Program-made: the position numbers and the translations under genes
Part shown: one piece after another, positions 16,907 to 34,514 of the stretch
Position numbering within the stretch: position 1 is the stretch's first letter
Layout of the letters: every line of letters starts with the position of its first letter
Notes under the pieces: generated by a model
Databases searched by the model: none
Told to the model about the DNA's origin: nothing
The model's input: the letters and a program-made list of their open reading frames with translations, nothing else
Origin: an uncultured Methanomassiliicoccaceae archaeon
GTDB taxonomy: Archaea > Thermoplasmatota > Thermoplasmata > Methanomassiliicoccales > JACIVX01
NCBI GenBank assembly: GCA_964544915.1
Contig: CAZJDY010000015.1
Location: 1,248-65,247 of the forward strand
DNA: 64,000 nucleotides
Direction of reading: 5' to 3'

Positions 16907-16932
16907 GTGGACTTCAACTATCCCTTGGTCGC

Positions 16933-17545: not shown

Positions 17546-17567
17546 CCGCTATCGCTTCAAAAAGTGC

Positions 17568-18487: not shown

Positions 18488-18751
18488 CCCGCCGAATCCG
18501 GAGCCAATGCCTCAGAAACAGAAGAACACATGTCATATGCGCCCACCCAGAGACCCTTCAGCAGACAGTCAACTTGTTTAATCCCTGAGAATTACGTCGA
18601 AAAGGTGGTTTGGAAAAGGCATTGCCTGAACATCAGCTTCTTCTCTATCTGATATTCTCTTCATGATGTAGTCTTTAATACTCATCTTACCTAATCTTGT
18701 CTTCTTGGTGTCAATAGTTGGTTGACGTACAGACTGTTTCTGACGCGCGTG

Positions 18752-19519: not shown

Positions 19520-19789
19520 AAGTGGCGCGTGAATGCTAAGGGCTTTCTGCTCCTGTGCATGCGCTGACTACCGCCCATCGATTTGATTCGGCAGGAATTA
19601 CTCTTTAGTACTGAGTTTACCCAATCTAGTCTCTCGAGCGAACCAGTAGGCTTCGATAATCAGAACCGATTTTGAAGAACCTGAAGTAGGACTCCTCCTT
19701 TTTGCAGTAAGACCGCCAGAAGTCCGATGAAAGGGATTCTGGAGATTCGGACGAAGCTCATATCATAACAACTGGCGTAGAAGCCACCT

Positions 19790-20605
19790 CTATGGTGACC
19801 ACGTGAACATCCTAAACTCGCACAGCTCTTTGAACCCAAGTCTCTTGTAGATCGGGAAGCCCAATTCGCTCGCCTCGAGAACAGCAACATCATAGCCGGC
19901 TTCTTTTGCACGAATGAGAGGTTCGCGGGTCATCGCGGATCCTATGCCCTTCCTTCTCGCCCCGGTGAGTGTCGCGATATTGTAAATGCCGGCGACTTCC
20001 TCGTGAAGGACTAGAAGGGACATTGCGACAGGCTTCCCATCAAGGAACCCTAGGAACCAGCGGCGAGTCGGACTCGCGCCATAGCTCCTGATGAGACTCT
20101 CCCAACCTCCCCTGATGTCTTTTGGGACTTCAAACACTTCTGCTGATATATCGCTGCAACTCCCCAAGGACTTCGCGTCCTCGACTTGCTCAATCTCGAA
20201 ATCGGGAGGCAATGGTTCGCTGTTTACGTCTCTCAGATCGATAGCCATTCCCGGAGTCTTCGGTTCCGAGGCTAGACCCTGGCTCAATAGGAAGTTGCCA
20301 AGTGTCACTGGAGTGCTCGAGGGACCGAGAACCCATGTCATCGGAAGTTGAGCGCTTCTAAAGTATGTCATCGCCTCCTCAGCCCTTTTCGGGAGATTGC
20401 TGGCATTGAACCTTGGACCAAGAATGTAATTGAGCAAAGCCATACGAAGGCCTGTCGAGACGATGGTCATATCAGGCTCTCTACGCACGAATGAGCCCTG
20501 AAGGCCAGAACACAGGGATGTCAAGGCTTCATAGTGTGTTGTTTCAATTGTGCAAATCAACTCTTCCTCTGTAAACCTTCCCATCATAACGCGAAGGACT
20601 CCCAA
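19790..20605 (-). CDS. GNAT family N-acetyltransferase, two-domain type (paralog 1)
   Basis: 271 aa. C-terminal RRKGIGSAM...A...LY.RLGF acetyl-CoA-binding motif. Alignable along its whole length to ORF 31370-32167. Confidence 0.8.
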   Translation of the reverse strand: MGVLRVMMGRFTEEELICTIETTHYEALTSLCSGLQGSFVRREPDMTIVSTGLRMALLNYILGPRFNASNLPKRAEEAMTYFRSAQLPMTWVLGPSSTPVTLGNFLLSQGLASEPKTPGMAIDLRDVNSEPLPPDFEIEQVEDAKSLGSCSDISAEVFEVPKDIRGGWESLIRSYGASPTRRWFLGFLDGKPVAMSLLVLHEEVAGIYNIATLTGARRKGIGSAMTREPLIRAKEAGYDVAVLEASELGFPIYKRLGFKELCEFRMFTWSP

Positions 20606-20731
20606 ATTGCATTCTGTGGATGATTAGATAGTATTTTCGGTTTTGTCGTTCTCTCGAAAATGAAGTGGGCAAAGAAGTCCAGTTCCGCGCACTATCCGCA
20701 TATGGAACACAACACATGCGAAGAAACCTCT

Positions 20732-20757
20732 CCCCCATCTGCCGTCAGAAGCGTCAG
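20732..20757 (-). repeat. Island motif 1, copy A
   Basis: Plus strand: cccccatctgccgtcagaagcgtcag. Lies in the gap between the ICMT-like and GNAT-1 genes. Confidence 0.85.
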
Positions 20758-20780
20758 TCACGAAGTATGCGTGACCTTTC

Positions 20781-20820
20781 GGGATGCCGTGAGGTTCGGG
20801 CTGTGAGAGATTAGCTGAAC
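20781..20820 (-). repeat. Island motif 2, copy i
   Basis: Plus strand: gggatgccgtgaggttcgggctgtgagagattagctgaac. Confidence 0.7.
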
Positions 20821-20838
20821 ACTTTTCCGTTCTTCTTA

Positions 20839-21426
20839 TCAGAATTTCGGGATTCCTATCCATCTTGGGGTCCTATTCATGTATTCTCGGTATGCATTTC
20901 CATACTTTTGGAGGCAGGAACGTTCTTCAGAAACTATACCAGTATGCACTGGAATTAAGAAAACTGCGGTAATTAGCAGAAAAACCCAGGAAGCACATGC
21001 GATGCCTGTGCCGCCAAAGATCAAGAACATGCTAAAGTAGATAGGGTTTCTAGAAAAACGGTAGACCCCTTTGGTGACAGGTTTATCCACTGGAGTAGTG
21101 AAGAAATTTTGAACTGCTATAGTCTCGATAATCGCTCCCAGCAAATAGATGAGGAATCCAGCAAAGAACCAGACTGTCCCCAGTTCAAGCGGCAAGAAGA
21201 TGCTGTAAGCAATTAGAGCGATGAATAGAAAGGATATGATATTCGAGATTTTTTTCTCAGTCTCGTTGAGCGGCGCATCAGAACCTTTCTTCAATACCTC
21301 TTTGTCAATTAGCCATCCTGATAATAAAAAGGGCAATAAGTTTAAGAATGTCAAATAAAGCATGAAAATCCAAGCATTCCATAAGCCCAACTCAAAAGCT
21401 GGAATAAGCGACATAATCCTACCCAA
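20839..21426 (-). CDS. Isoprenylcysteine carboxyl / phospholipid methyltransferase-like membrane methyltransferase
   Basis: 195 aa, polytopic. GVYRFSRNPIYFSMF...EERSCLQKYGNAYREY is typical of the ICMT/PEMT family. Confidence 0.75.
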   Translation of the reverse strand: MGRIMSLIPAFELGLWNAWIFMLYLTFLNLLPFLLSGWLIDKEVLKKGSDAPLNETEKKISNIISFLFIALIAYSIFLPLELGTVWFFAGFLIYLLGAIIETIAVQNFFTTPVDKPVTKGVYRFSRNPIYFSMFLIFGGTGIACASWVFLLITAVFLIPVHTGIVSEERSCLQKYGNAYREYMNRTPRWIGIPKF

Positions 21427-21433
21427 GTCCGGA

Positions 21434-21931
21434 CTAGACCATGCGGTTCATGGTGTCTCTCGCGAATGCCCGAGCTTTCATGAGCCTAGCCTCGTCGGGT
21501 TGACCTTTACTGTTATGACTCTTTGCAAAAGTCCGAATTTTCTTATTAGTTGAGATTCTCATTATTAGCTCCAAACCCTTGGCTAGCTCCCCTTGGCAAT
21601 CGAAGAACCCTACTAGGTTCGCACCGGCAGCTGCTTGTTTGAACTTTGCCATCCATTCCGGGACTTCTGGTACATCTTCTGGGGCACAATGCGTCACGAA
21701 CAATGCTACCTTCCTTCCGCCCGTGCAATGTTTATCTAGGAATTCCTTTACCTTCTTGTCAGGTCCATATTGATGCGTGGGAAAGCCCAGGAATGAGATA
21801 TCATAAGCCCCGATATCCTGCACATCTTTAATCGGTCTGATCTCCTTCTCACCAGTTATCTCTCCATATATGGCTTCGGCTACCTTCTTGGTGTTGCCCG
21901 TCGACGACATGTATGCCACAAGCACTTTCAT
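21434..21931 (-). CDS. Flavodoxin
   Basis: MKVLVAYMSSTGNTKKVAEAI is an FMN phosphate-binding loop. 165 aa. Confidence 0.8.
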   Translation of the reverse strand: MKVLVAYMSSTGNTKKVAEAIYGEITGEKEIRPIKDVQDIGAYDISFLGFPTHQYGPDKKVKEFLDKHCTGGRKVALFVTHCAPEDVPEVPEWMAKFKQAAAGANLVGFFDCQGELAKGLELIMRISTNKKIRTFAKSHNSKGQPDEARLMKARAFARDTMNRMV

Positions 21932-21987
21932 TCCGTTGCCTCCAACTATTCTCCATTCGGGCGAGCATCCTTAAAACTTATGGCAGC

Positions 21988-22034
21988 GGTCCAGGACCTA
22001 TCAGGGTGCCGTGAGGTCGGGCTTTGACAGATAA
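21988..22034 (-). repeat. Island motif 2, copy ii
   Basis: Plus strand: ggtccaggacctatcagggtgccgtgaggtcgggctttgacagataa. Contains the palindrome GGTCCAGGACC. Confidence 0.7.
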
Positions 22035-22054
22035 AGAGCGTTCTCAAATGGTTC

Positions 22055-22324
22055 TTACTCCACGCGGGCTGGTAGGATTCGCTTCTCCGGATCCTCGTAG
22101 TGTTCCACCTTGATAATCACGTTTGACTTGACGCCAGCTACTGCAGATAGGACGTGATTCAAGATTTGCTCGGCGGTCGCCCGTAACTCTCGGCCACGTG
22201 CGCTCACTTTGTACCAGCCGCTCTTATCTCTATAATAGAACTCAGTAGAGTTCTTGCCGCTTATCTTGATAACATAGCTCTCATTGGTCAGGTTCATTTT
22301 ACATCCATCCACATGCATAAACAT
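22055..22324 (-). CDS. Small hypothetical protein immediately downstream of the STAND ATPase
   Basis: ORF-track 22055-22399. I trim the N-terminus because 22341-22396 is a non-coding repeat copy. Likely start is ATG 22324, 22318 or 22297 (MNLTNESYVIKISGKNSTEFYYRDKSGWYKV...). No family recognised. Confidence 0.45.
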   Translation of the reverse strand: MFMHVDGCKMNLTNESYVIKISGKNSTEFYYRDKSGWYKVSARGRELRATAEQILNHVLSAVAGVKSNVIIKVEHYEDPEKRILPARVE

Positions 22325-22340
22325 CAAGGTTTGTGACAGA

Positions 22341-22396
22341 GGTCCAGGACCTATCGCGATGCGGTGAGGTTCGGGCTCTGAGAGATGAGCTGAAAC
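22341..22396 (-). repeat. Island motif 2, copy iii
   Basis: Plus strand: ggtccaggacctatcgcgatgcggtgaggttcgggctctgagagatgagctgaaac. Confidence 0.7.
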
Positions 22397-22421
22397 CATT
22401 TACCTTTCCTTTTTTTTCCCT

Positions 22422-22450
22422 CCCCCCATCTGCCGTCAGAACCGTCAGAA
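22422..22450 (-). repeat. Island motif 1, copy B
   Basis: Plus strand: ccccccatctgccgtcagaaccgtcagaag. Lies 9 nt beyond the stop of the STAND gene. Confidence 0.9.
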
Positions 22451-22458
22451 GTGGCGGT

Positions 22459-24888
22459 TCAGTCAATATTCGATTCAAGCTCAGTGAGTAATACATCGAT
22501 CCTTGTAACTTGTCTTCCATTTCCATGTGATAAGAATATTTCTCTGGCCTTTGTCAATTGCTCAAATGCCTTTTCCCGATTTCCCAATCTTGATAAGAAT
22601 ATTCCAAGGGATTGTCTTGAGATTGCCTCCATATTTGGGTCCCTCACTCCTCCACTAAGCACATCCATTGCATTTTCCGATTGTCTAATGCATTCCTCAT
22701 TTCTTCCTTTAAGACCTTGGAGCATTGCTTGGGCTAATATTATCAGACCTCTAGCTGGCGTTTTTATGCTCCATTCATACGATTCTGTGAGTTGTTTCGA
22801 CCTATCGATCAGCTCCTCCGCATCATCCATCATTCCAGTCATAATATCGACCTGAGCAAGAACGGCACATGCCCGGGCATGCAGGACCGACTCCTCGATT
22901 GCTTGAGCGATTTCTAAGGTCTTCAGGCACTCGTCTCTTGCTCGAAGATAGTCTCCTCTCATCATCAATATCCTGGAAGAATCATTGTGAACCGCATAAA
23001 GGCATAGATTATGGCCCAGTTTGCTTGCCAATGTATGGGCGGACCTCAGGTGCTCGGCAGCCTTCTCCTCATCCCCGATTGTTATGAGTAGTTCTGCCAA
23101 CCCCAACTCGTATTTTAGTGAACTCAACGAGCTAGTTGACTCGCTGAGAATCGCAAATAGGCTCTCCATCTTTGAAATGGCTTCTTGCATCCTTTCCAGG
23201 GAACAAAGAAAGCCGGCATGATCATTCATGACGTCCATCAATCGATCCTTCCTTTTGCTTTTCCTAAGCATCATCTCGGCTTCATCATATGATCGCTCCG
23301 CCACGTCCAGCTTCCCCTCGAACATAGCAAGGTTCGCCTTTTCAGCTAAGATCGAACCAATGTCAAAGTCATTCATACCGGCGATTGACAAAGCCCGGTC
23401 GATATATTCCCATGCAAGTGCGGTGCTACCCTTCCCTAACGAAGTGGGACCGTACAATTTTGCCATCCTCCACAGAAGTTGGCCTTCTTTACATGGCTCC
23501 AGTTCCAATGATAGGGCCTGGTCGTAAGCACTTTGTGCAGAGTTGAAGTTGAGAACATCTACAAAGCTGTCGCCCAATCCGATTAATGCTCTGAGTTTCT
23601 CCTTCTTATGATTCGCACCTATTGGGATGCTATCCACGGCTCTTTGGAAAAATGTGACCGCCTCAGCACCCCCTGATTCTCCTAGGAAGTATTCTCCCGC
23701 TCGAATCGAATAATCGAGACTCTTTTCCTCTTGGCCGGCCAGATGGAAGTGAAATGATAGTGTGCCGAGCATCCTATCGTCCGGTAATCTCGATTCGAGA
23801 GAGGTCCCGACCTGCTTATGGAGTTCTTTCCTACGTGGTGGTGCGATCTGATTGTAAGCAACTTCCCTAACCTTGTCGTGTTCGAAGCGATATTCTTCAC
23901 CCATCGTTTTGACCAATTGGAATCTATTCTCCAGGGAGTCGAGCGATTCGAGAGCCTGCATCCTGTCCAGCTTCAGAACCTGCTCAATGATCTTTGGATC
24001 GAAATACTCACCGACCACAGACGCGCACTCCAACAACCGTCTCTGGTCTCTTGGCAGCCTTTCCAATCGCCTGAGGATGACCTCTCGCACCGTGGACGGA
24101 ATAGTTATCGTATCCTTATCTGAGAACACCCAGATGCCTTCCTTCAGGACTATGAGCCCCGAGGTTACAAGCATACGAACGATCTCTACAGCGAAGAGAG
24201 GATTCCCACCGCTCTCCTTGACGATTCGATGGGATACCGTTTCATGTACACGGCCTCCGAGCATGCTCTCAACAGCTTCGATGATTGCCTGGCCCTCCAG
24301 CCTGTTAAGATGTATTTCATTGACAATACCCTCCCTCACCATCAAATGAATAGTGTCCCCGAGGGGGTGCACTTGCTGCCCCGACTCAGCAATGATGTCC
24401 TCGGTACGGTAAGTTCCGGTAATCGCGACACGAAGGGGTCTGATGTTCCGTGCTAGGAAGTGCAGTAATTGGACTGTCACCGAGTCAGCCCACTGCAAGT
24501 CATCCAGACAAATCAGTATTGGTGTTTTTTCAGACTCTTTGGACAAGAAATCAAGGACTTTGAAGAGTACTATGCTGGAATCCTTCATCGCACGACCATC
24601 AGTCCCCGATTCATCTTCAAAAAGGCTTTGGGTGTATGAGGTGAAGGCTTCATAGAATGGAAGATATGGGCAAGGATTCCCAGGAATGCATCTACCTAAT
24701 AGGATTGTGAACCCAATTTGTCTTGCAATGTCAGCAGCTGCATTCATTACCCTTGTCTTGCCGATTCCTGCCTCCCCGGAAATCAGAACTAATGAACCGC
24801 TTCCTGAAAGCACCTCGCCTATATGGCCAACAATTCTTTCGATCTCTTCTTCCCTACCCACCAAAATGGGCTCGAGTTCCATTGTCAC
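22459..24888 (-). CDS. STAND-type P-loop NTPase (AAA_16-like) with long TPR/helical-repeat C-terminus and no recognisable effector or HTH domain
   Basis: 809 aa. Walker A GEAGIGKT, Walker B ILICLDDLQWAD. The ATPase module begins at about residue 10. The C-terminal ~450 aa are TPR-like repeats. Confidence 0.75.
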   Translation of the reverse strand: MTMELEPILVGREEEIERIVGHIGEVLSGSGSLVLISGEAGIGKTRVMNAAADIARQIGFTILLGRCIPGNPCPYLPFYEAFTSYTQSLFEDESGTDGRAMKDSSIVLFKVLDFLSKESEKTPILICLDDLQWADSVTVQLLHFLARNIRPLRVAITGTYRTEDIIAESGQQVHPLGDTIHLMVREGIVNEIHLNRLEGQAIIEAVESMLGGRVHETVSHRIVKESGGNPLFAVEIVRMLVTSGLIVLKEGIWVFSDKDTITIPSTVREVILRRLERLPRDQRRLLECASVVGEYFDPKIIEQVLKLDRMQALESLDSLENRFQLVKTMGEEYRFEHDKVREVAYNQIAPPRRKELHKQVGTSLESRLPDDRMLGTLSFHFHLAGQEEKSLDYSIRAGEYFLGESGGAEAVTFFQRAVDSIPIGANHKKEKLRALIGLGDSFVDVLNFNSAQSAYDQALSLELEPCKEGQLLWRMAKLYGPTSLGKGSTALAWEYIDRALSIAGMNDFDIGSILAEKANLAMFEGKLDVAERSYDEAEMMLRKSKRKDRLMDVMNDHAGFLCSLERMQEAISKMESLFAILSESTSSLSSLKYELGLAELLITIGDEEKAAEHLRSAHTLASKLGHNLCLYAVHNDSSRILMMRGDYLRARDECLKTLEIAQAIEESVLHARACAVLAQVDIMTGMMDDAEELIDRSKQLTESYEWSIKTPARGLIILAQAMLQGLKGRNEECIRQSENAMDVLSGGVRDPNMEAISRQSLGIFLSRLGNREKAFEQLTKAREIFLSHGNGRQVTRIDVLLTELESNID

Positions 24889-24954
24889 CTTTCAATAGGA
24901 GTTTCTTGAAGGCTTAGACTTTTGGATTCTCCTTCATCGTTCTGTTTCCTTTGT

Positions 24955-24981
24955 CCTTCAGAACCGTCGGATGTGTCAGAA
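24955..24981 (-). repeat. Island motif 1, copy C (degenerate 5' part)
   Basis: Plus strand: ccttcagaaccgtcggatgtgtcagaa. Near-identical to the distal part of copy E. Confidence 0.65.
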
Positions 24982-25069
24982 ATATGAGAGATAGGCCAAA
25001 CCTCATCCATTCTCTTCTTAACATTTTACTCCTCATAGATCAGATATTCATCCATCGCTCCAAGTTGAG

Positions 25070-25264
25070 TCAGTCGTCGAAGATGAATAGCTCGTTGATG
25101 CTCGTCTTCAACGCCTTTGCTATCGAGTGTGCCAGGTTGAGGGATGGGTTGTAGTCGCCCTTCTCGACGAAGAGGATGGTCTCCCTACGCACGCCCACCA
25201 TCTTGGCGAGATCTTCTTGAGTCATGTCGTACCTCGCCCTGAGCTCCTTGATCCTGGTCTTCAT
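25070..25264 (-). CDS. XRE-family HTH transcriptional regulator (64 aa)
   Basis: [56 protein letters not shown] overlap with the upstream membrane-protein gene. Confidence 0.85.
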
Positions 25265-25704
25265 TTGGGGACACCCTTTCTCTTGAGATAGGTGTTCAGA
25301 ACCAGGAAGATTGACCCCATCGCTGCAACGTAGATCATGAGCCATTCAGATGTGGGGAGTGACGAGATTTGGTTATCCTCAAGTATCACATGAAAGAAGC
25401 TCATTCCGAACACAAAGTATAAGCTGATGTAGAAGGCAAGATAGCCAGCGCGCATCTTGATCGTATGTGTTCGCTCGTCTTCGCTTGGAATTCCACTTTT
25501 CAGCTCCCTCAGCTTCCTTCGAGCGACAATGAGAGCGATCGCTGCCATTGTGATTACGATCACTGCCGACACCATCGTCGCCCAGTTGTCAACATTGACG
25601 TTCTCATATGCGATGACGAAAACTGTCCCCAAAACCAGCACAGTGACGGTCATCCATACAAACGCCCGAAACCTCGCTCTGTCGTCCATGTCAAACCTCT
25701 CCAT
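25261..25704 (-). CDS. Four-TM membrane protein (DUF2178-like by recollection) co-transcribed with the XRE regulator
   Basis: 147 aa with four hydrophobic helices. Translationally coupled to 25070-25264. Confidence 0.55.
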
Positions 25705-25850
25705 GATATTCTTTTGTTACTTTACGCGAACTTTTTGTTTGTTTAATATCGCTTTATGTTATCTATAACTAACATCACATATATGAATCCTTTGACGAGA
25801 CTTCTACGAAACGAGTCCTTAGAAACCCCTTTCTTCTTTCTAGTTCTCTT

Positions 25851-25885
25851 TCCCCATCTGCCGTCAGAACCGTCAGAAATGTCAC
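25851..25885 (-). repeat. Island motif 1, copy D
   Basis: Plus strand: tccccatctgccgtcagaaccgtcagaaatgtcacc. Confidence 0.9.
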
Positions 25886-26021
25886 CATTATCGATCTAGA
25901 GAATAGAGCTGAGGAATTTCTCAATGTCCGAGACAACAAGAGCGCTTCCGCAATACGGACAGTTGGTCAGCCTGTCAATTGAAGTGTCTTTGTTTATTGT
26001 CATCTCGTGCTAATGGTCCGT

Positions 26022-26576
26022 TTACTTCTTGAATTCTTTACCAATGGTCCAGCCTTTGGCGAGCTTTTCGCCGAGACAATAGTAGTTCCTGTCAGTCATC
26101 GTGAATAGGATCGGACGAAGTTTCGAGAGGTCCACTGCTGCATCTGTCATAACTTCCTCATCGCAATAGGTCGCAACGACCTTTCCGATGAACAGATCAT
26201 GATTGGGCATGTCAATTGTATCGATGAGCTCGCATTCCATAGAGACCGGACACTCTTCAATCATAGGAGCGGTCCCAAGTTTTCCGTAAAAAGTCTTGAA
26301 AAGAACAGACTTGTCTTCATCTTTCCCAGATACGATTCCACAATAATCAGTCACCTTTACCATATCCTCTTTGGGGATGTTGACGCTGAAGCACTTGTTC
26401 TCTCTTATGCCAATGTTCGTGTAGTGCTTCTTGTTCATGCTTAGTGAAATTGAACTGTGATCTGCAATGCCGACATGGGCCATTGTGATGTAGTTCGGCT
26501 TTCCTTCAACCAGCGCCCCCACAAGAACTATGGGTAAAGGATACAGGCAGTTCTTCGCCCCGATTTCTTTTTTCAT
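26022..26576 (-). CDS. Flavin reductase-like (FMN-binding split-barrel) protein
   Basis: MKKEIGAKNCLYPLPIVLVGA...NYITMAHVG. GGAGG 7 nt upstream of ATG 26576. Confidence 0.75.
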   Translation of the reverse strand: MKKEIGAKNCLYPLPIVLVGALVEGKPNYITMAHVGIADHSSISLSMNKKHYTNIGIRENKCFSVNIPKEDMVKVTDYCGIVSGKDEDKSVLFKTFYGKLGTAPMIEECPVSMECELIDTIDMPNHDLFIGKVVATYCDEEVMTDAAVDLSKLRPILFTMTDRNYYCLGEKLAKGWTIGKEFKK

Positions 26577-26658
26577 CCAAGTGACCTCCTTCAGGGTATT
26601 TTGCATAACATATATATTCTATTCGTTGACGATCCCGGTATGTTCGTCTTCCGGTCTT

Positions 26659-26696
26659 TCCCCATCTGCCGTCAGAACCGTCGGAAGTGTCAGAAG
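26659..26696 (-). repeat. Island motif 1, copy E (longest form)
   Basis: Plus strand: tccccatctgccgtcagaaccgtcggaagtgtcagaag. Minus-strand reading: CTTCTGACACTTCCGACGGTTCTGACGGCAGATGGGGA. Confidence 0.9.
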
Positions 26697-26865
26697 CCTC
26701 GAAAAAATCGAAGTCGCTATCCTTAACTGAACAGACCGGCGTTTTCTTGGTGTTTTCGTCATTTCCCTAGCAGTTGAATATAAAAAAAGTCCCTGGTTCC
26801 ACTTCTCCCGACTGGCGTTCCCAAATCACGAATTTCCGTGTTTCATTCTTTGCGAGGCATGCCCT

Positions 26866-28095
26866 CTACAGAGATTCTTGAGATGCTTCCACTTTCCCTA
26901 GTATTGGCTCATGGATGAATGACTTCTTCTTGAACGCAAGACGAGCTGCATCCACCAATAGCAAGGTCCCAATAAGAATCAGCGTGAATCCAACCAGCCA
27001 ACTACCTTCAAACTGGAACGGAATCTCGCCGTTATCTCTCATTGCTAAACCGGCGGATATGATGATTGGGGGATAGGCCAGAAACAGCCTCTTGGCAATT
27101 CTCCAATCCTTGGCCGCCCAGACGGACAGCATGGCGACCGGCATTATGTAGTATCCCGAATGGATTTTCGGATAGAACACTACGAAGACTATGAGAACAA
27201 GTGTGACGCTATCCCAGACCCCCATTCTTTTGCGGTGACAGTACAGATAAGTGAGGAAAAGTGAAGCTAGAACGATCCCAAGTTCGATTTCATTCTGGAT
27301 TCCGAGTCCCCCCATGCGCAGGAAATGCCACATGCTTGACCCGCCGGTCGGTCTTCCGGATTCACCCAAGAAGTAGAAGTCTATGAATCCGGCAAAATCG
27401 TCATAACAGAGAACTACAAATGGCAATGTTACGACAGAGGTGACAGCCAGAATGATCAGAATAAAAAACATCTTCTCCCTCGAGCTTCGCAGCCTCAGGA
27501 ATTGAATCGGAAGCAGTAGAATGGCGAACATCTTCGTCCATATACCTGCTGCAATCGCCGCAGCAGCAAGCCTGTTGCGTTCGTGTAGCATGAGGACCAC
27601 AGATATCAAGAAGACAAATGCAACAAGTGACTCGTCCTGACCCACCGAAGTATCTATGACGCTGAAAGGAGTGACGAGAACCAGAAGGCCGGTCAGAAAG
27701 GCGCTGTGGTCGTCCCATCGACGCAGGGCAACATAGAGGACACAGGCAGTTAGGAATGCGAAAAACGAGAAGTATATGCTCCAAACCCAATCGTACTGAG
27801 AACCTCCGAGCAGCTGAGCCGGAATCATAAGGTAGTTCACAAGAGGCGGAGTCTCGGTGTGAACATCCCTGTACAATAGATCACCGTTGAGTATGGTCTG
27901 GGTTCTCTCCCGGTAGTTGTAGATGTCAGCGTGGGCAACTTCTGGTTCGACCAGACCAGAAAACCACAAGAAATTGACTGGGATAGTAGCTCCGTATATG
28001 ACCGCCGTCAGGGCAAGATAGAACAAGATCTTCTTTCGGAAGTCGAACCCTCTCAGCTTTCTGTCAATCTTACCTATCTTGCCCCCGATATTCAT
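26866..28095 (-). CDS. GT-C-type membrane glycosyltransferase (DUF2029/GT87-like)
   Basis: 409 aa, polytopic. First extracytoplasmic loop reads NGDLLYRDVHTETPPLVNYL, like the GT-C/DUF2029 motif. Confidence 0.6.
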   Translation of the reverse strand: MNIGGKIGKIDRKLRGFDFRKKILFYLALTAVIYGATIPVNFLWFSGLVEPEVAHADIYNYRERTQTILNGDLLYRDVHTETPPLVNYLMIPAQLLGGSQYDWVWSIYFSFFAFLTACVLYVALRRWDDHSAFLTGLLVLVTPFSVIDTSVGQDESLVAFVFLISVVLMLHERNRLAAAAIAAGIWTKMFAILLLPIQFLRLRSSREKMFFILIILAVTSVVTLPFVVLCYDDFAGFIDFYFLGESGRPTGGSSMWHFLRMGGLGIQNEIELGIVLASLFLTYLYCHRKRMGVWDSVTLVLIVFVVFYPKIHSGYYIMPVAMLSVWAAKDWRIAKRLFLAYPPIIISAGLAMRDNGEIPFQFEGSWLVGFTLILIGTLLLVDAARLAFKKKSFIHEPILGKVEASQESL

Positions 28096-28232
28096 GGTGT
28101 ACCATCTTCGTATGAGACTCCAGAACAGGTGAGTGATTCTTCTATGTTTCTACTTTCTCGAAGTGATGATATCGGGCAAGATTGGTGTGACGACCAACCA
28201 TAGCAACGGTTAAGACCAAAATCCTGTGAAAT

Positions 28233-29180
28233 TCAAATAGGTCTTATAACTTGCCTGTACCACTCAACAAACCGCTGAAGTCCTTCTTCGATATCGACTT
28301 TCGGCTCCCAGTCAAGAATCCTTCGCGCCAAAGAGTTATCTCCCCAGGTATGTTCGACATCACCTGGTTGTTCTGGCAAGTACTCAGGCTCAATGTCCTC
28401 TCGGTCACAGATCTGAAGAATGTTCGAGACGAGGCGGTTCACTGTCAATCTCCTCCCGCTGCAGATGTTCAACGAGATTCCTTCCGCGTTCCCACAATCA
28501 ATCGATGCATTGATAGCCGGAACGACATCAGAGATGAAAGTGAAGTCCCTTGTCTGCTCCCCATCGCCAAATATCTGCGGTTTCTGGTTCCTAAGGACCC
28601 TGTCAGTGAAGATCCTTATTGCCATGTCCGGACGCTGGCGCGGACCGTACACTGTGAAGTACCTCAGTGAGATGGTTTCCAATCCATATAGCTCGTTGAA
28701 CTGGCGGCAGTAGACCTCCGCGATCATCTTGCTTGCGGCATATGGGGAGACGGGCTCAAGAGGATCATCTTCCTTCACTGGTAAACGTTTCGCATTGCCG
28801 TAAACAGACGATGATGAGGAGTTCACCAGCCTCCGAACCCCAGAATCTCTGCAAGCGACAAGAAGATTCAGTGTTCCCAGTGCGTTTACGGTGTGTGATT
28901 TCAGAGGATTTGCGACAGAAAAACGCACTCCCGCTTGGGCCGCCAGGTGCACGACAACATCGGCACCTTTGACCGTCCTTCTCATGCGCTCAAGATCGAG
29001 TATGTCCGCCTTGATGAGCTCGAAGTCAGGGTTTTTCTCGTGCTGAGCAAGAAACTGCATCTTACCAGAGTAGTAGTCGTCGAAGTTGTCTACCGCCTTC
29101 ACTTCATGTCCCTTGCAGACAAGGAGGTCGATCACATGGCTACCGATGAACCCAGCTGCTCCGGTCACAACGATCTTCAG
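28233..29180 (-). CDS. NAD-dependent sugar-nucleotide epimerase/dehydratase (extended SDR)
   Basis: (L/M)KIVVTGAAGFIGSH...YAASK catalytic motif. The conserved beta1 strand lies upstream of the first ATG/GTG/TTG (29168), so I extend to CTG 29180 (see finding). Confidence 0.8.
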   Translation of the reverse strand: MKIVVTGAAGFIGSHVIDLLVCKGHEVKAVDNFDDYYSGKMQFLAQHEKNPDFELIKADILDLERMRRTVKGADVVVHLAAQAGVRFSVANPLKSHTVNALGTLNLLVACRDSGVRRLVNSSSSSVYGNAKRLPVKEDDPLEPVSPYAASKMIAEVYCRQFNELYGLETISLRYFTVYGPRQRPDMAIRIFTDRVLRNQKPQIFGDGEQTRDFTFISDVVPAINASIDCGNAEGISLNICSGRRLTVNRLVSNILQICDREDIEPEYLPEQPGDVEHTWGDNSLARRILDWEPKVDIEEGLQRFVEWYRQVIRPI

Positions 29181-29184
29181 ACCT

Positions 29185-29976
29185 TCACCTCCTCTTCCTG
29201 AGCGCTTCCATTTCCACCCTGTGCTGTCTCTTGAACTTGGAGAAATCCCTGAGGGTTATGAACGGAACTGTGTACGATTTTATGTACGATCTGCCGCTGG
29301 GCCTTGCGTAGTGTGTGATAGGTATCTCCACGATTCTCATACCCTTGAGCGCGGCCAACGGGAGAATGAAGCGATGCAAGCCTCTGTAGCCCTCAGGATC
29401 GAACTGCATCGTGACAGCTTTCTCCCTTCGGAATGCCTTGAAGCCGCTGTTCTGGTCTTTGACCTTCAGTCCGAATCTTCTCTGTATGATGCGACGATTG
29501 TAAACGCTTGATATGAACTTCCTTATGAACGGATCGGTTCTTTGATGCCTCCAACCAGTGACGACATCATATCCCTCAGCGACTTTTTCAAGAAACAGCG
29601 TTATCTCTTTCGGTTCATACTGGCGATCCCCATCCATAATTATGATGACATCTCCTCTCGCTTCCTGGAACCCTGTTCTGATAGCGAAAGATCTTCCCTT
29701 GTTTACTTTGTGATGGATTGCTCTGACATTCTCGTGCCGTCTTGCTAGATCATCGCAGATCGCAGGGGAACGATCAACGCTGCCATCGTCAACGAGAACG
29801 ACCTCGCCATCAATCTTGTCAGATCTGTATACTTGAAGTATCGCCTCTGTCAGCGGCTCTATGTTATTCTCCTCGTCCTTTATCAGAAGCACTGTGCTGC
29901 ACTTCAGGCGAATCCCTCGGTCTTCACTGAGATTCCTGTGAATCAGTCGAAATTGACGGTTTGTGGCGTCCCTCAT
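29185..29976 (-). CDS. GT2 glycosyltransferase, polyprenol-phosphate sugar synthase-like (GtrB/DPM-like)
   Basis: VVLVDDGSVDRS...NKGRSFAIRTGF...IIIMDGDRQYEP is typical of the GT2 Dpm1/GtrB clade. Confidence 0.8.
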   Translation of the reverse strand: MRDATNRQFRLIHRNLSEDRGIRLKCSTVLLIKDEENNIEPLTEAILQVYRSDKIDGEVVLVDDGSVDRSPAICDDLARRHENVRAIHHKVNKGRSFAIRTGFQEARGDVIIIMDGDRQYEPKEITLFLEKVAEGYDVVTGWRHQRTDPFIRKFISSVYNRRIIQRRFGLKVKDQNSGFKAFRREKAVTMQFDPEGYRGLHRFILPLAALKGMRIVEIPITHYARPSGRSYIKSYTVPFITLRDFSKFKRQHRVEMEALRKRR

Positions 29977-30952
29977 AGAAGATCATCGCAAGGACCCCTA
30001 CTGGGATTGAAAGCCAGATGGACGTGAGAGCACTGAGGATTCCTGCAGTGGCGGCTATGTCATAGTTAATTCCACTGGCAGTGAAGATGGCGGAGGAAAC
30101 GACGACGTTGCTGCTTCCCGCCGATAGAAACACCGCGCTGAGAGACGCGATGCTTGCCGTTGCGACGACCGCAACGAGACTCGCCTGTACGCCAAGCGCC
30201 TCCATGATAAGGAATAGACGGACAATTTCGTTCGTCCAGATTACGATTGTAAGGGCGCCAGCATATGCAATCAATCTTCGTTTACCCTCTATCTTTGTCG
30301 AGTGGATTGCAGAGTTGAATGAGCCAACGAATCCCTTGATGCTATTCGAAAGTTTTCTTCCTCTCTCCCCCTTTGCTATCATCCGTACGGTTTTAGCCAT
30401 AAGATTGCCTGATTTTGCGAGGAACTTGGGTATTGCCAGCATATAGATGATGAGGAAATTCACAATCACCATGACTACAACAGTGGCGATTAGCTGATTC
30501 CTCATGTCCTCCACCAAGAAGGTAAGGAGGAGCATCAGGCTTGTAACGCACAGAATCGTCAATACTATAAAATCCATTAGTCTCTCCGACACAACGGTCG
30601 CAAGACAGGTGCCGATGCCGACACTCTCCTTAGCCCTCATCCCGTATACTCGACTTGCCTCTCCTACCACCCTTCCAGGAGTGACGTTGTTCAGGGCCTG
30701 AGAGAATGAGAATGTGGCAAATATCGAGGCGAAACGTATCTTATTCCCGGTACTGCGCATCAGCAACCCCCAGCGAAAGCTCTTCACCACGAGATTGATG
30801 AAGTAGAGTAATACGACAGAAGCGATGATAACAAGGTCAACTCCCACGAGGGCGTCTCCGACAGACTCAGGATTTGAAATCACGATCGTTGCGGCTATCA
30901 GTCCAACCGAGATGGCAATGTTGACCTTGGTGCTTCCGTTTATCTTCCTCAA
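29924..30952 (-). CDS. Flippase-like / lysylphosphatidylglycerol-synthase TM-domain (UPF0104) membrane protein
   Basis: 342 aa, about 8 helices. FRWGLLMR...TPGRVGE-like motif (NVTPGRVVGEASRV). Confidence 0.6.
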   Translation of the reverse strand: MRKINGSTKVNIAISVGLIAATIVISNPESVGDALVGVDLVIIASVVLLYFINLVVKSFRWGLLMRSTGNKIRFASIFATFSFSQALNNVTPGRVVGEASRVYGMRAKESVGIGTCLATVVSERLMDFIVLTILCVTSLMLLLTFLVEDMRNQLIATVVVMVIVNFLIIYMLAIPKFLAKSGNLMAKTVRMIAKGERGRKLSNSIKGFVGSFNSAIHSTKIEGKRRLIAYAGALTIVIWTNEIVRLFLIMEALGVQASLVAVVATASIASLSAVFLSAGSSNVVVSSAIFTASGINYDIAATAGILSALTSIWLSIPVGVLAMIFYEGRHKPSISTDSQESQ

Positions 30953-31052
30953 CGATTACTCAACTCCTCCCCTCAAAGTTGACTTCTTGACAGAAACGAC
31001 CTAGAATTGGCAAAAGGAGGATAAATAGTGTACCTAGCAGCGGTCAACCTCC

Positions 31053-31090
31053 TCTCCATCTGCCACCAGGACCGCTGGAAAGTGTCAGAG
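31053..31090 (-). repeat. Island motif 1, copy F (degenerate)
   Basis: Plus strand: ctctccatctgccaccaggaccgctggaaagtgtcagagg. Confidence 0.6.
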
Positions 31091-31270
31091 GAATGGATCG
31101 GGCGAAGCCCGAACGCTTTCGATCCGCTTGTTATCTGAATTGGGAAGAATGTGGGGCTCGCCCGAGACCGAACTCTGCACAATCCAGATGGGCAAAATCA
31201 AAATGCAATTCTCGCACCTTAACGCATGACCAGCCCATGAAACCCCTTCCCCCTTTTTCTCCTGATCTGT

Positions 31271-31299
31271 AACCCCATCTGCCGTCAGAACCGTCAAGG
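31271..31299 (-). repeat. Island motif 1, copy G
   Basis: Plus strand: aaccccatctgccgtcagaaccgtcaagg. Confidence 0.9.
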
Positions 31300-31302
31300 C
31301 TG

Positions 31303-31321
31303 CCGGAATCGGTGATTCCGG
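31303..31321. repeat. Perfect 8-bp-arm palindrome CCGGAATC-GGT-GATTCCGG abutting motif copy G
   Basis: Read directly. Lies about 50 nt beyond the stop of GNAT paralog 2 on the minus strand. Confidence 0.6.
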
Positions 31322-31369
31322 GCGAGCCGCGCACGATTCACTACCTGGTAGCCGCCAATGGATTTGCAT

Positions 31370-32167
31370 TCATGGCGACCACGTGTATGTCCTAAACTCG
31401 CAAAGCTCTCTGAACCCAAGTTTTCTGTAGATCGGGAGACCCATTTCGCTCGCCTCGAGAACGGCAACTTCGTAGCCAGCATTCTTGGCGATTTGAAGTG
31501 GTTCCCGAGTGATCGCGGTTCCTATGCCCTTCCTTCTTGCCTCAGGGATAGTCGCGATATTGTATACGCCGGCGACGTCCTCGTGAAGGACCAGAAGGGA
31601 TACTGCAACGGGCTCTCCGTTAAGAAACCCCAGAAACCAGCGACGCGTCGAACTCATGCCAAAGCTATCGATGAGTTCTCTCCAGCCGTCCCTGATGTTT
31701 CCAGGGATTTCGAAAACGTCTGCCATTATATCGCTGCAAGTTCTCAAGGACACCCGATCCTCGACCTGCTGAATCTCGAGTCCAGAAGGCAATGGTTCGC
31801 GGTTCACAGTCCTTAGGTCGATGGCCATTCCTGGGGTCGTCCTTTCTGAGACAAACCCCCGATTCAATAAGAAGTCGTCGAGCTCTGCTAGAGTGCTTGA
31901 GGGACCCAGAACCCATCTCATTGGAAGTCCAGTGTTCTTGAAATGTGACATCGCCACCTCGGCCCTTTCCGAGAAATCACTTGAGCCGAATCTCGGGCCG
32001 AGAACGCCGTTCAGTAAGGCCATGGGAAGACCGCTCGAACATACGATCATGTCTGGTTCCCTACGCAAGAATGAACCTGGAATGCCAGTGCAGAGAGCTA
32101 TGATAGCTTCGTAGTAGGTCCTCTCAATAGCTCGAATCAACTCTTTCTCTTCGAATCCTCCTATCAT
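31370..32167 (-). CDS. GNAT family N-acetyltransferase, two-domain type (paralog 2)
   Basis: 265 aa. RRKGIGTAI...LGF motif. Alignable along its full length to 19790-20605. Confidence 0.8.
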   Translation of the reverse strand: MIGGFEEKELIRAIERTYYEAIIALCTGIPGSFLRREPDMIVCSSGLPMALLNGVLGPRFGSSDFSERAEVAMSHFKNTGLPMRWVLGPSSTLAELDDFLLNRGFVSERTTPGMAIDLRTVNREPLPSGLEIQQVEDRVSLRTCSDIMADVFEIPGNIRDGWRELIDSFGMSSTRRWFLGFLNGEPVAVSLLVLHEDVAGVYNIATIPEARRKGIGTAITREPLQIAKNAGYEVAVLEASEMGLPIYRKLGFRELCEFRTYTWSP

Positions 32168-32313
32168 AGCACTCAGAACTCTCAGATTACATGCTGCAAA
32201 CGGTTAGATAGTGTTTTGGTTTTGTCGCTCTGTCGAAAATGAGAAGGAGAAAGCAGTCCAGCTTCGCACAGTAGCCCCTTATGTGACCCAGGGACAAAAG
32301 CAAAGAGGTCTCT

Positions 32314-32342
32314 CTCCCCTTCTGCCGTCAGAACTGTCAAGG
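32314..32342 (-). repeat. Island motif 1, copy H
   Basis: Plus strand: ctccccttctgccgtcagaactgtcaagg. Confidence 0.8.
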
Positions 32343-32502
32343 AGGAGCGGGTTGAGTGGGATTCTTACCCGCGATTCTGACTAGCAAGAGGTCGATTTGT
32401 ACCGTTTACGGTACAAAGCACCTGTTTGAAGGTATGAAAGATAGACCAAACCTCTTCCATTTTTCCCTTTTGAAATACCCTTGGTATGTCCAGATGATAG
32501 CT

Positions 32503-33066
32503 TCAGGGCGAGCTGAGGATGGTGGCGGCGAACTCATCCACCTTTCCCTGCCAGCCTTCCTCCAGCGGCCCCTTCATCTTCTCCCCTGAAACTAAGAATA
32601 TCTTGTCGGCAACTTTCACCAGCCCCTTCCCCCTCAAGATCTCATCCAGGATAGGTATGGTCTTCCTCCAGCGGTTGAGTCCTTCCTCCGTCGGCATCAG
32701 CCCGGTCTTCTTATCAGGCACCGCGTCACCGTGGGTCGCGAATATGGCACACTTTGTTCCCGACGGCAGTGAGACCTTCTTGATGAAACGGCGCATGCTC
32801 CCTAGTGGCCCGCCGAATCGCGTGGGTGACCCAAAGACGTACAGGTCGGCGAGGGGCAGCTCCTTAGGCTTCGACTCATCGATATGATGCACGTTCACCT
32901 GATGGCCTTTGGTCTCCATGACCCGCCGTAACTCCTCGGCGACCTTCGCTCCGTTCCTGAATTTCGAGGCGTGATATAGCTCAATCTTGATGAGGATCCC
33001 CCGGCCATGGCGAATGCAACTAATCCCTATTAATGATTTCTTGCAAGCCGGCTCCAAAACCTTCAA
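32503..33066 (-). CDS. Flavodoxin-like fold protein
   Basis: ILIKIELYHASKFRNGAKVAEEL...LYVFGSPTRFG pattern. The true start may be downstream of ORF-track 33066. Confidence 0.6.
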   Translation of the reverse strand: MKVLEPACKKSLIGISCIRHGRGILIKIELYHASKFRNGAKVAEELRRVMETKGHQVNVHHIDESKPKELPLADLYVFGSPTRFGGPLGSMRRFIKKVSLPSGTKCAIFATHGDAVPDKKTGLMPTEEGLNRWRKTIPILDEILRGKGLVKVADKIFLVSGEKMKGPLEEGWQGKVDEFAATILSSP

Positions 33067-33093
33067 GTCTGTCGCGCTGCAATCTCCGAATCT

Positions 33094-34507: not shown

Positions 34508-34514
34508 TGGACAT

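Follow-up and report, generated by a model that had tools for sequence, protein, structure and literature searches.

Integrons are among the described systems closest to the locus reported here, and they resemble it in their arrays of mostly single-gene modules with highly diverse cargo including GNAT acetyltransferases, in the co-oriented recombination sites that separate the modules, with exchange exactly at these sites as is also found here, and in the tyrosine recombinase gene that heads the array and points away from it. Archaeal integrons have been reported from a search for attC structure, and the main text of that report contains no mention of tRNA, Thermoplasmata or Methanomassiliicoccales (PMC9668308). 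In tycheposons, cargo accumulates beside tRNA genes and partial tRNA copies separate the units, newer units displace older ones from the tRNA, and integrase fragments are scattered among the units (bioRxiv 10.1101/2020.12.28.424599). The dif modules of Acinetobacter plasmids, bounded by pdif (XerC/XerD) sites, are small accessory modules that lack a recombinase, carry short conserved sites and shuffle between replicons (PMC6449649, PMC13141974). The archaeal locus described below follows a logic that resembles the integron, but the tests for an IntI-type integrase, for attC sites and for promoterless, co-oriented cassettes gave negative results, and no published description of its motif system was found in the literature.

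The window, that is, the whole 64-kb stretch of DNA analysed, contains a motif in six clean copies, one degenerate copy (F) and two decayed ones; they lie at 19.7–32.3 kb, share the minus strand and are without exception placed between ORFs. The full form of the motif is (TTCTGACAC)-TTCTGACGG-TTCTGACGG-CAGATGGGG, which confirms the tandem 9-nt units noticed in the preliminary description. Searching with the pattern CCCCATCTGCCGTCAGAACCGTCAG (at most three mismatches) gave six plus-strand matches starting at 20733, 22424, 25852, 26660, 31273 and 32316, while 0/100 shuffles were matched, the chance expectation being none. A Hamming scan of both strands of the full 64 kb with the 27-mer TTCTGACGGTTCTGACGGCAGATGGGG (at most seven mismatches) returned the same six clean copies together with copy F (31054–31080) and no others, all on the minus strand. 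The eight co-oriented copies of the preliminary description, as well as their position in gaps between genes, were confirmed, and a ninth, decayed copy downstream of GNAT1 was recognised by homology, an intact motif lying at the equivalent position of locus L074. The features of the region are as follows.

16931–17057, plus strand: tRNA gene with two insertions, anticodon CCG (Arg) by manual reading
19697–19721, minus strand: ninth copy, decayed, TTCTGGCGG-TCTTACTG-CAAAAAGG; closes both the GNAT1 cassette and the array on the 3′ side
20733–20757, minus strand: copy A, CTGACGC-TTCTGACGG-CAGATGGGG; 5′ boundary of the GNAT1 cassette
20755–22390, minus strand: cassette group of a 114-aa ORF, a flavodoxin and a PEMT-like methyltransferase
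22424–22459, minus strand: copy B, AACCGCCAC-TTCTGACGG-TTCTGACGG-CAGATGGGG; abuts the STAND stop codon
24955–25004, minus strand: copy C, decayed, TTCTGACAC-ATCCGACGG-TTCTGAAGG, without CAGATGGGG
25852–25920, minus strand: copy D with left arm; motif at 25852–25885, degenerate tRNA-like left arm at 25886–25920
26660–26695, minus strand: copy E, full three-unit form TTCTGACAC-TTCCGACGG-TTCTGACGG-CAGATGGGG; 5′ boundary of the flavin-reductase cassette
31054–31090, minus strand: copy F, degenerate, three-unit, CTCTGACAC-TTTCCAGCGG-TCCTGGTGG-CAGATGGAG
31273–31299, minus strand: copy G, CCTTGACGG-TTCTGACGG-CAGATGGGG; downstream of GNAT2
32316–32342, minus strand: copy H, CCTTGACAG-TTCTGACGG-CAGAAGGGG; first junction of the array
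32343–32454, minus strand: left arm of junction H, tRNA-Ala-like 3′ fragment and conserved block
33599–34507, plus strand: Xer-like tyrosine integrase (Pfam Phage_integrase) at the array head, transcribed away from the array
34510–34532, plus strand: displaced tRNA 3′ fragment, attR-like, directly 3′ of the integrase stop codon

The array lies inside a tRNA-integrated island (17058–34509) whose ends are marked by a repeat, the last 23 nt of the tRNA (17035–17057) recurring at 34510–34532. The native sequence of 16931–17057 gave no tRNA call by ARAGORN or Rfam, and the ARAGORN call appears only once the two inserted segments are removed. The duplication of the GNAT unit ends at the motif as previously described, with 19792–20711 and 31372–32290 sharing 75–83% identity at an offset of 11,580. 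Copy C has kept three 9-nt units (24955–24981) and lost CAGATGGGG, and upstream of it stand the first 22 nt of a conserved block (24983–25004). At junction H the block (32380–32454) contains the palindrome TGTACCG-N4-CGGTACA and precedes the degenerate tRNA-Ala-like 3′ fragment (32343–32379); in about 25 further loci, motif copies are likewise preceded by the block and the tRNA fragment. The left arm of copy D is similar to the sequence 3′ of tRNA-Ala in L024, and the interval between copies G and F (31091–31272) is geneless.

The motif had been thought specific to this island, which holds within the window only: public genomes and metagenomes yielded 95 Methanomassiliicoccales loci with 201 copies, making it a multi-locus element of a Methanomassiliicoccales clade. 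Among 185,579 species genomes, the exact 18-mer TTCTGACGGCAGATGGGG occurred at 16 loci, spread over 14 contigs from four Methanomassiliicoccales/Thermoplasmata MAGs, and the remaining 24 exact matches were single and bacterial, about 35 chance matches being estimated for a pattern of such length. A stricter motif pattern matched 111 metagenome stretches. Adjacent copies were co-oriented in 103/106 cases and spaced by a median of 1,122 nt (range 145 to 6,827 nt) of unrelated content, with a single ORF in 59 of 103 inter-motif intervals. The 102 non-redundant cassette proteins were assigned to 100 Pfam families, and neither recombinase nor transposase families are among the 25 cassette-protein families listed. 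Overall, these data show a genuine motif that has a direction and extends through the lineage, and modules of cassette size. Information content, calculated from 74 copies that do not match the retrieval pattern, peaks at TTCTGACGGCAGA and falls on either side. The motif is often followed by a purine-rich stretch that includes a conserved GGTTT... box.

Comparison of related variants, a check proposed in the preliminary description, showed that gene content in related contigs changes exactly at motif copies, the same module occurring with different neighbours and homology always breaking within the 18-mer. The flavin-reductase cassette is homologous to L042 (93%) and L095 (94%) from a point inside copy E onward, with a different upstream junction in the window, L042 and L095. 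The cassette group at 20755–22390 is 98.35% identical to L096 over 1,636 nt with different sequence upstream; it is subdivided by a second repeat, the 'variant block' (22347–22397, 21994–22022 and 20773–20820), and in L055 the flavodoxin forms a lone cassette between two full junctions. The copy B junction recurs in L017, there with only the last ~70–75 nt of the STAND gene. A two-module segment of 1,790 nt is present or absent between L045 and L079 on the one side and L058, L101 and L114 on the other, its flanks being 100% identical and overlapping by exactly the 18-mer; insertion or deletion with exact boundaries is thereby shown as a polymorphism in at least one case. L066 consists of the upstream part of L080 (99.96%, 2,453 nt) joined in the motif to the downstream part of L070 (99.7%, 4,660 nt). 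In the linkage profile of 21 pairs with shared downstream and different upstream sequence, mismatches are high through position 8 and nearly zero from position 9, and in 12 converse pairs they are low through position 26 and rise abruptly at 27. The points of exchange lie within the 18-mer, and variants of the GGGG that follows the core travel with the downstream context.

Of the three readings offered beforehand, that of a recombination site, cassette-like without attC cores, is supported by this module exchange at motif copies, whereas the operator or iteron reading and the RNA or 3′-end reading found no support. The motif is read, with a probability of roughly 0.7, as a site of site-specific recombination that is double-stranded, is defined by its sequence and delimits small integrase-less gene cassettes. 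The left arm of such a site would comprise a 9-bp unit (TTCTGACRS), single or as two or three direct repeats, at times preceded by a segment resembling a tRNA 3′ end, the core would be TTCTGACGGCAGAT, and the weaker right arm would be GGGG and then a purine-rich tract. Strand exchange would take place within the 18-mer, probably just 3′ of CAGAT, where a putative trans-acting recombinase, most likely of the tyrosine type, would release a cassette in circular form with one site; reinsertion of the circle at another copy would build co-oriented arrays, located downstream of tRNA genes or within tRNA-integrated islands. Each cassette would carry its own promoter, and its gene direction would therefore be free. 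From these patterns we infer enzymatic rather than homologous exchange, the exact cleavage position and circular intermediates; a search for a circular cassette contig found none.

The association with tRNA genes bears on another explanation. In five arrays the motif begins 3–16 nt after an intact tRNA gene, and as L024 duplicates L109 these arrays represent four contexts. The genes are tRNA-Ala(TGC) in L009, tRNA-Arg(CCT) in L026, tRNA-Met in L093, and in L024 and L109 a tRNA-Ala(CGC) by manual reading, which ARAGORN calls Gly or His. Some inner junctions of the tRNA-Ala arrays L009, L024 and L109 carry a repeat of the final 22 nt of the tRNA, the fragment in L009 differing from the 3′ end of the adjoining gene at one of 22 positions. 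The motif might be no more than an arm of the sites at which ordinary tRNA-integrating elements attach, placed immediately beyond the core that is identical to the tRNA and bound, for instance, by the integrase or by an accessory protein, in which case the arrays would have arisen by repeated integration at the same tRNA followed by decay, and the exchanges by homologous recombination or slippage. Tandem 9-bp direct repeats are typical of the arm-type sites of lambda-type integrases, the conserved palindrome-bearing block across the tRNA core is P-arm-like, and integrases adjoin tRNA 3′ ends. The tRNA 3′ fragments within arrays are better explained by ordinary integration at tRNA genes than by motif-based exchange, and exchange confined to 18 identical bp is equally expected if short repeats recombine homologously or if replication slips between them. 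Nevertheless, this explanation is judged unlikely. T-loop-like strings stand upstream of 29/159 junctions, against 2.6% of control windows, but no tRNA-like string is present upstream of the other 130. The 9-mer units move with the upstream context, whereas a P′ arm should move with the downstream element body. In addition, 19 of 161 unique left-intact copies are half-sites that end uniformly after CAGA(T) and are joined there directly to unrelated DNA, which is not a product of homologous recombination, and integrase-less one-gene modules of 0.15–2 kb are far commoner than the decay of full elements suggests.

A very improbable role is that of an operator, iteron or upstream promoter element through which an island regulator (HTH 17333, XRE 25070 or STAND) would co-regulate the cargo. 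Within the window, the ORFs between copies that reach 100 aa number 11 and all follow the motif direction, the copies lie 25–150 nt upstream of start codons, and the core combines direct repeats with the imperfect palindrome TCTG-ACGG-CAGA, both common in operators. Across the 95 loci, by contrast, ORFs of at least 100 aa inside modules point 54 with and 49 against the motif, therefore making a promoter, operator or RNA role unlikely; another count of gene direction gave 86 and 76. In the other loci, the first gene 3′ of the motif runs in the same direction in 49 cases and in the opposite one in 46, and the next co-oriented ORF begins at distances from <0 to >800 nt. None of the other 94 loci encodes a homologue of the XRE or HTH protein, and only two encode a STAND homologue. 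Some copies stand immediately 3′ of a tRNA gene and are followed by a convergent gene, and the TATA-like box of the flavin-reductase gene lies inside its cassette and is conserved and moves with it. The operator reading is largely refuted by the orientation statistics.

Still less probable is a transposon or MITE end lying by chance between genes: the repeat is indeed multi-copy and lineage-restricted, but it has no inverted partner and delimits no fixed-length unit, and the recurrent proteins include no transposase. Least probable of all is an RNA-level element (sRNA, 5′-UTR element, terminator or processing signal), for which the intergenic position and the downstream purine-rich tract would speak, but no Rfam family was matched, 107-nt motif-centred windows fold no better than random windows from the same loci (both −25.2 kcal/mol), and gene orientation is unrelated to motif orientation.

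As a recombination site, the motif differs from each of the known systems. In integrons, the attC site is a structure-defined hairpin, an imperfect palindrome with R''/L''-L'/R' cores (GTTRRRY), whereas a conserved sequence of 18–36 bp is found here, its consensus having no GTTRRRY core and its folding energy equalling that of random windows. attI1, with direct repeats beside a simple core, is comparable to the motif in layout. Integrons encode IntI, an integrase subfamily with an extra domain; against the NCBIfam integron-integrase model TIGR02249, the Xer-like integrases here score 18–22 bits (window integrase 17.9, L113 integrase 21.7) with a cut-off of 265. Integron cassettes are mostly promoterless and co-oriented and depend on a platform promoter for expression, whereas those here face either direction with promoters of their own, in arrays anchored at tRNA genes. 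With tycheposons, with the tandem accretion of tRNA-targeting integrative elements and with the cis-mobilizable elements that accretion leaves in bacteria, the shared traits are tRNA-side cargo, partial tRNA copies (at some junctions here), unit displacement and integrase fragments, and L009, L024, L109, L026 and L093 likewise start at an intact tRNA gene. Here, however, the motif that recurs at the boundaries lies outside the tRNA, most boundaries are without a tRNA fragment, and the exchange points are located in the motif, not in the tRNA-derived segment. The units are of 0.15–7 kb, usually with one gene and without integrase or replication genes, and the hosts are archaeal; accreted units carry a tyrosine recombinase of their own or are remnants of units that did, whereas no recombinase family appears among the 25 listed cassette families. 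The dif modules are, like the cassettes here, small, recombinase-less and bounded by short conserved sites; they are served in trans by the host Xer recombinase, and Xer-like recombinases lie near the arrays here. pdif sites are 28 bp long with inverted arms, resemble the host dif site and alternate in orientation, whereas direct repeats with no 11-6-11 layout are seen here and nearly all neighbouring pairs (103/106) are co-oriented.

The chances appear about even that this Methanomassiliicoccales clade possesses its own gene-cassette system, integron-like in function and independent in design. Such a system would be built on the core TTCTGACGGCAGAT/GGGG with 9-bp iterons, exchange would be driven by a putative trans-acting recombinase, and self-promotered cassettes facing either way would form arrays seeded at tRNA 3′ ends or borne on tRNA-integrated islands. 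If so, it would be a source of much of the strain-level variation in gene content of these wetland and peat archaea.

The recombinase would most likely be a tyrosine recombinase acting in trans. By inspection, the site is without the usual layout of tyrosine-recombinase sites (two inverted arms and a 6–8 bp spacer), its consensus holding direct 9-bp repeats and only the 4+4 bp palindrome mentioned above. A tyrosine integrase is the only mobility gene that recurs near the arrays; its matches are confined to array heads, and of the 12 loci with an integrase, 10 have it at the head and directed away from the array. The preliminary description had placed the motif beside such a recombinase, and the integrase does adjoin the array, but it is N-terminally truncated by ~68 residues, as several array-adjoining integrases are truncated, and the integrase family does not predict motif presence, 12 loci fetched through integrase homologues (40–94% identical to the window or L113 integrase) containing no motif copy. 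The best NCBIfam matches of the window integrase are XerA/XerC/XerD, all far below cut-off. Its homologue P0001 is 94% identical and 372 aa long, and the homology of the P0001 contig to the window begins at 33589.

In the direction of the genes, the repeated element reads (TTCTGACAC)-TTCTGACGG-TTCTGACGG-CAGATGGGG and is followed by a purine-rich tract. A core search with mismatches allowed, judged against 100 shuffles, located six copies and found no match in any shuffle (0/100). A Hamming scan of the entire 64-kb window on both strands with the 27-mer TTCTGACGGTTCTGACGGCAGATGGGG (at most seven mismatches) yielded the same six copies and a degenerate one, copy F.

Copies of the element in the window
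20733, 22424, 25852, 26660, 31273 and 32316 (plus-strand starts), minus strand: six core copies
31054-31080, minus strand: degenerate copy F
24955-24981, minus strand: copy C, three 9-nt units kept and CAGATGGGG lost
19697-19721, minus strand: decayed ninth copy, directly after GNAT1

At the position homologous to the decayed ninth copy, an intact motif stands in L074, a related contig. The repeated, co-oriented motif of the preliminary description was thus recovered as six clean copies and the degenerate F on a single strand, none being found in shuffles; every window copy is intergenic, as had been claimed, and the GNAT duplication was found to end at the motif at the same point. After many copies, e.g., at 22398-22423 and 25826-25851, the consensus displays a purine-rich tract of ~25 nt and then GGTTTC/G, which may form part of the right arm of the site or be a ribosome-binding or promoter region shared by the cassettes. 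The interval between copies G and F (31091-31272) contains no ORF, starts with the purine-rich tract and a GGGGTTTC box as after many copies elsewhere, and may be an empty or decayed cassette.

The motif had been called specific to the island, and a search beyond the genome had been proposed; once run, this search located copies outside the window's island, in Methanomassiliicoccales and Thermoplasmata MAGs and in JGI metagenome loci. The exact 18-mer TTCTGACGGCAGAWGGGG matched 40 loci among 185,579 species genomes, 16 of which belong to 14 contigs of four MAGs (Methanomassiliicoccales SPRUCE_353 and OWC_0006, Methanomassiliicoccaceae UBA472, and a Thermoplasmata archaeon); the remaining 24 are single bacterial matches, the chance estimate for a pattern of this length being ~35. 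A stricter pattern gave 111 stretches in JGI metagenomes, and 80 of them were taken as loci. In the resulting set of 95 loci (592 kb, window included), a Hamming scan with at most six mismatches detected 201 motif copies, with almost none in shuffled sequence. The sole match in viral contigs lay inside a radical-SAM coding sequence and was treated as chance.

Neighbouring copies have the same orientation in 103 of 106 cases and lie 145-6,827 nt apart (median 1,122 nt), and 59 of 103 intervals hold one ORF and eight hold none. The flanks on either side are unrelated from copy to copy. Based on the 74 copies outside the retrieval pattern, the information content is highest at TTCTGACGGCAGA, decreasing across the upstream units and dropping past the T of CAGAT. 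The matches of the 102 non-redundant cassette proteins comprised 100 Pfam families, including GNAT acetyltransferases, flavodoxins, nitroreductases, methyltransferases, and SHOCT proteins, and no recombinase or transposase family was among the 25 Pfam families listed for them. The window cargo, comprising two GNATs, two flavodoxin-like proteins, a PEMT-like methyltransferase, a flavin reductase, a STAND NTPase, an XRE/DUF2178 pair, and a four-gene glycosylation operon, agrees with this picture. A search for circular cassettes found no metagenome contig with terminal overlaps. In L042, two arrays face each other, with plus-strand copies at 622, 3649, and 3864 and minus-strand copies at 8272, 7039, and 6265.

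Gene content switches exactly at motif copies, in line with the suggestion that a recombination site delimits the modules, and the comparison of island variants proposed earlier likewise showed changes at the copies (L042, L095, L096, and the L045/L101 sets). The flavin-reductase module (25997-26682) matches L042 at 93% and L095 at 94% identity; its homology starts inside the motif, and its upstream context is different in the window, L042, and L095. The group at 20755-22390 is 98.35% identical in L096, where the upstream neighbour is different, and its flavodoxin occurs in L055 as a single module between two full junctions. The 5' region of GNAT2 retains 97% identity in L112 right up to the motif, and in L017 the STAND gene upstream of a copy is reduced to its final ~70-75 nt. 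A 1,790-nt two-module segment between two copies is present in L045 and L079 and absent from L058, L101, and L114; the flanks show 100% identity among the five contigs, and the overlap between the alignments is precisely the 18-mer. L066 corresponds to the upstream part of L080 (99.96% over 2,453 nt) fused within the motif to the downstream part of L070 (99.7% over 4,660 nt). The exchange positions were resolved with copy pairs whose distant flanks are shared on one side only.

Mismatch along the motif in pairs of copies sharing one flank
Same downstream, different upstream (n=21): mostly 0.3-0.9 through position 8, near 0 from 9 on
Same upstream, different downstream (n=12): low through position 26, mostly 0.6-0.8 from 27 on

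Both profiles place all exchanges within positions 9-26, that is, TTCTGACGGCAGATGGGG. Variants of the upstream 9-mers move with the upstream context, and GGGG variants, such as ACAA in L079 and L101, with the downstream context. In addition, 19 of the 161 unique copies that have an intact TTCTGACGGCAGA are half-sites, running into unrelated sequence right past CAGA(T). Half-sites are not a product of simple homologous recombination between repeats, and their common end point suggests a fixed cleavage near CAGAT/G. With a probability of roughly two in three, mobile cassettes without an integrase are bounded by the motif acting as a double-stranded recombination site that has a direction and is defined by its sequence. 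The main alternative, rather unlikely, is that it represents a mere arm region of ordinary tRNA-targeting elements exchanged by homologous recombination, which leaves both the half-sites and the movement of the 9-mers with the upstream side unexplained.

The strength of this alternative lies in the tRNA fragments, for which it accounts well. Intact tRNA genes lie 3-16 nt before the start of five arrays, which represent four distinct contexts because L024 and L109 are near-identical duplicates, and several repeats accompany the arrays and their relatives.

tRNA genes and repeats at arrays and related loci
L009, array start: tRNA-Ala(TGC)
L024 and L109, array start: intron-containing tRNA, read as Ala(CGC) from G3:U70, Gly or His according to ARAGORN
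L026, array start: tRNA-Arg(CCT)
L093, array start: tRNA-Met
Window 32380-32454; L009 6459-6566; L113 3987-4098 and 11266-11349; ~25 other loci: block with palindrome TGTACCG-N4-CGGTACA
Window 22347-22397, 21994-22022, and 20773-20820; L165 6046, 7377, and 9465: variant block GGTTTCAGCTCATCTCTCAGAGCCCGAACCTCACCGCATC...
L167 3518, 4398, 7256, and 8294: a different 60-nt repeat

At the inner junctions of tRNA-Ala arrays, the last 22 nt of the tRNA is repeated and the conserved palindrome-bearing block of ~75-110 nt lies upstream; junction H of the window (32343-32454) is of this type. The block directly adjoins tRNA-Ala-like fragments on their upstream side at many junctions and could represent the opposite arm of an attachment site or a site of protein binding. 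The six full copies compared exhibited no compensatory changes in its hairpin stem. A T-loop-like string was found upstream of 29 of 159 junctions vs 2.6% of control windows; most junctions thus carry no tRNA trace, which the arm-region explanation leaves unaccounted for. The two mechanisms may also act jointly, with integration at tRNA genes seeding the arrays and exchange at the motif shuffling the cassettes.

A profile built from three integrases and run on the loci detected integrase genes or fragments in 12 of them, and in 10 of these 12 the gene sits at the array head, directed away and abutting a tRNA or tRNA fragment. Many integrases near arrays are truncated. All-against-all clustering of the 787 ORFs of the loci returned only the integrase and some cargo families as recurrent, making the integrase the only recurrent mobility gene and yielding no further platform gene. 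The preliminary description had placed the modules beside a tyrosine recombinase, and the integrases at array heads support this position. The adjacent family was nevertheless rejected as a motif predictor: the 12 loci retrieved by integrase homology, eight via the window enzyme (L155-L164) and four via the L113 enzyme (L165-L168), contain no motif copy, and therefore the adjacent integrase is not named as the cassette recombinase. In the window, the three-gene cassette group is subdivided by the variant block, which resembles the beginning of the palindrome-bearing block over its first ~30 nt. The variant block also occurs three times as an intergenic element in the cargo of the motif-less L165 and may be a second junction type. 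The intergenic 60-nt repeat of L167, another Methanomassiliicoccales contig, occurs four times among cargo genes upstream of a homologous integrase and may play a similar boundary role in a sister lineage. Sister lineages may use other sites.

The island enclosing the window cargo is bounded by a 23-nt direct repeat (17035-17057 and 34510-34532), the left copy being the 3' end of a tRNA gene (16931-17057) in which one insertion follows the anticodon loop and a second lies within the T-loop. On the native sequence of the window, ARAGORN called no tRNA with or without the intron option, and Rfam at gathering thresholds matched no family across the window and missed this gene; once the two insertions were deleted, ARAGORN folded it as a tRNA, and its anticodon was read by hand as CCG.

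Integrase of the window
33599-34507: tyrosine integrase, Xer-like and not an integron integrase, its stop 2 nt before the right repeat

Relative to a homologue of 372 aa with 94% identity, this enzyme lacks ~68 N-terminal residues, and the contig of the homologue matches the window only from 33589 on. Other DNA seems to have taken the place of the original element body as far as 33589. A shortened SRAP (SOS-response peptidase) ORF at 33094-33615 overlaps the integrase start.

The reading as an operator or promoter fares worse than the arm-region one. Genes in motif-bounded intervals are split almost evenly between the motif direction (86) and the opposite one (76), as are the first genes past a copy (49 vs 46) and ORFs of at least 100 aa (54 vs 49), the window being an outlier with 11 vs 0. 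The eight-copy array of L113 contains six opposite-strand genes, and in L009 the first copy comes after the tRNA and faces a convergent cupin gene. The other loci hold no homologues of the island XRE and HTH proteins, and STAND homologues occur in just two of them. These counts and missing regulators remove operator, promoter, and terminator as general explanations. The TATA-like box past copy E is located within the flavin-reductase cassette, and other contigs conserve the two together, indicating that cassettes appear to carry their own promoters. An RNA structure or attC-like hairpin was rejected, because motif-centred windows fold no better than random windows of the same loci on either strand and no Rfam family matched in the window. 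A split SSV-type integrase, with block, tRNA fragment, and motif (SDTSDGSDGRWG in one frame) as N-terminal coding part, was rejected since different copies are followed by unrelated sequences and the short ORFs show little conservation.

Site-specific cassette capture is well described in bacteria, where integrons and dif modules perform it, and to our knowledge it is known in archaea only through attC-type integrons from structure searches. Acinetobacter dif modules share with the motif cassettes the idea of a trans-acting Xer-type recombinase, but have inverted-arm sites, which alternate in orientation. The overall logic is common to integrons: among four defining features tested, the motif cassettes share the array structure with exchange at the sites and lack the other three, namely an integrase of the IntI family, attC structure, and promoterless co-oriented cassettes. 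A literature search for the motif sequence and similar archaeal systems found no description. Archaeal integrons were detected by attC structure searches, and the main text of that study makes no mention of Methanomassiliicoccales, Thermoplasmata, or tRNA (PMC9668308). Tycheposons resemble the arrays in tRNA anchoring and tandem growth, but each carries an integrase of its own, and tRNA fragments form their boundaries (bioRxiv 10.1101/2020.12.28.424599).

An easily searchable site different from attC marks hundreds of single-gene modules in methane-cycle archaea of wetland and peat, and co-occurring strains display recent insertion/deletion differences at it. The case also shows that a motif resembling a shared promoter in one island can prove to act differently when many loci are compared. 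If the mechanism were confirmed, the flexible genes of these uncultured archaea could be catalogued by reading from motif to motif, a second, independent case of integron-like logic would be available for comparison, and a short defined site could be used for gene insertion in this group, for which we know of no genetic tools.

The host is an archaeon: the window also codes for ribosomal protein S24e and an archaeal-type isoleucyl-tRNA synthetase, and outside it the motif occurs only in Methanomassiliicoccales and Thermoplasmata among the MAGs matched. The same host region recurs in two independent Logan assemblies, L153 (ERR3804376) and L154 (ERR4334730). Each assembly is broken within the flavodoxin-like gene at ~32590-32600, immediately ahead of the array head, which strain heterogeneity at the array would explain. 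The isoleucyl-tRNA synthetase (36615-40877, 1,420 aa) carries a long C-terminal extension with zinc-ribbon, HhH, and DUF835 Pfam matches, which is unusual for this enzyme.
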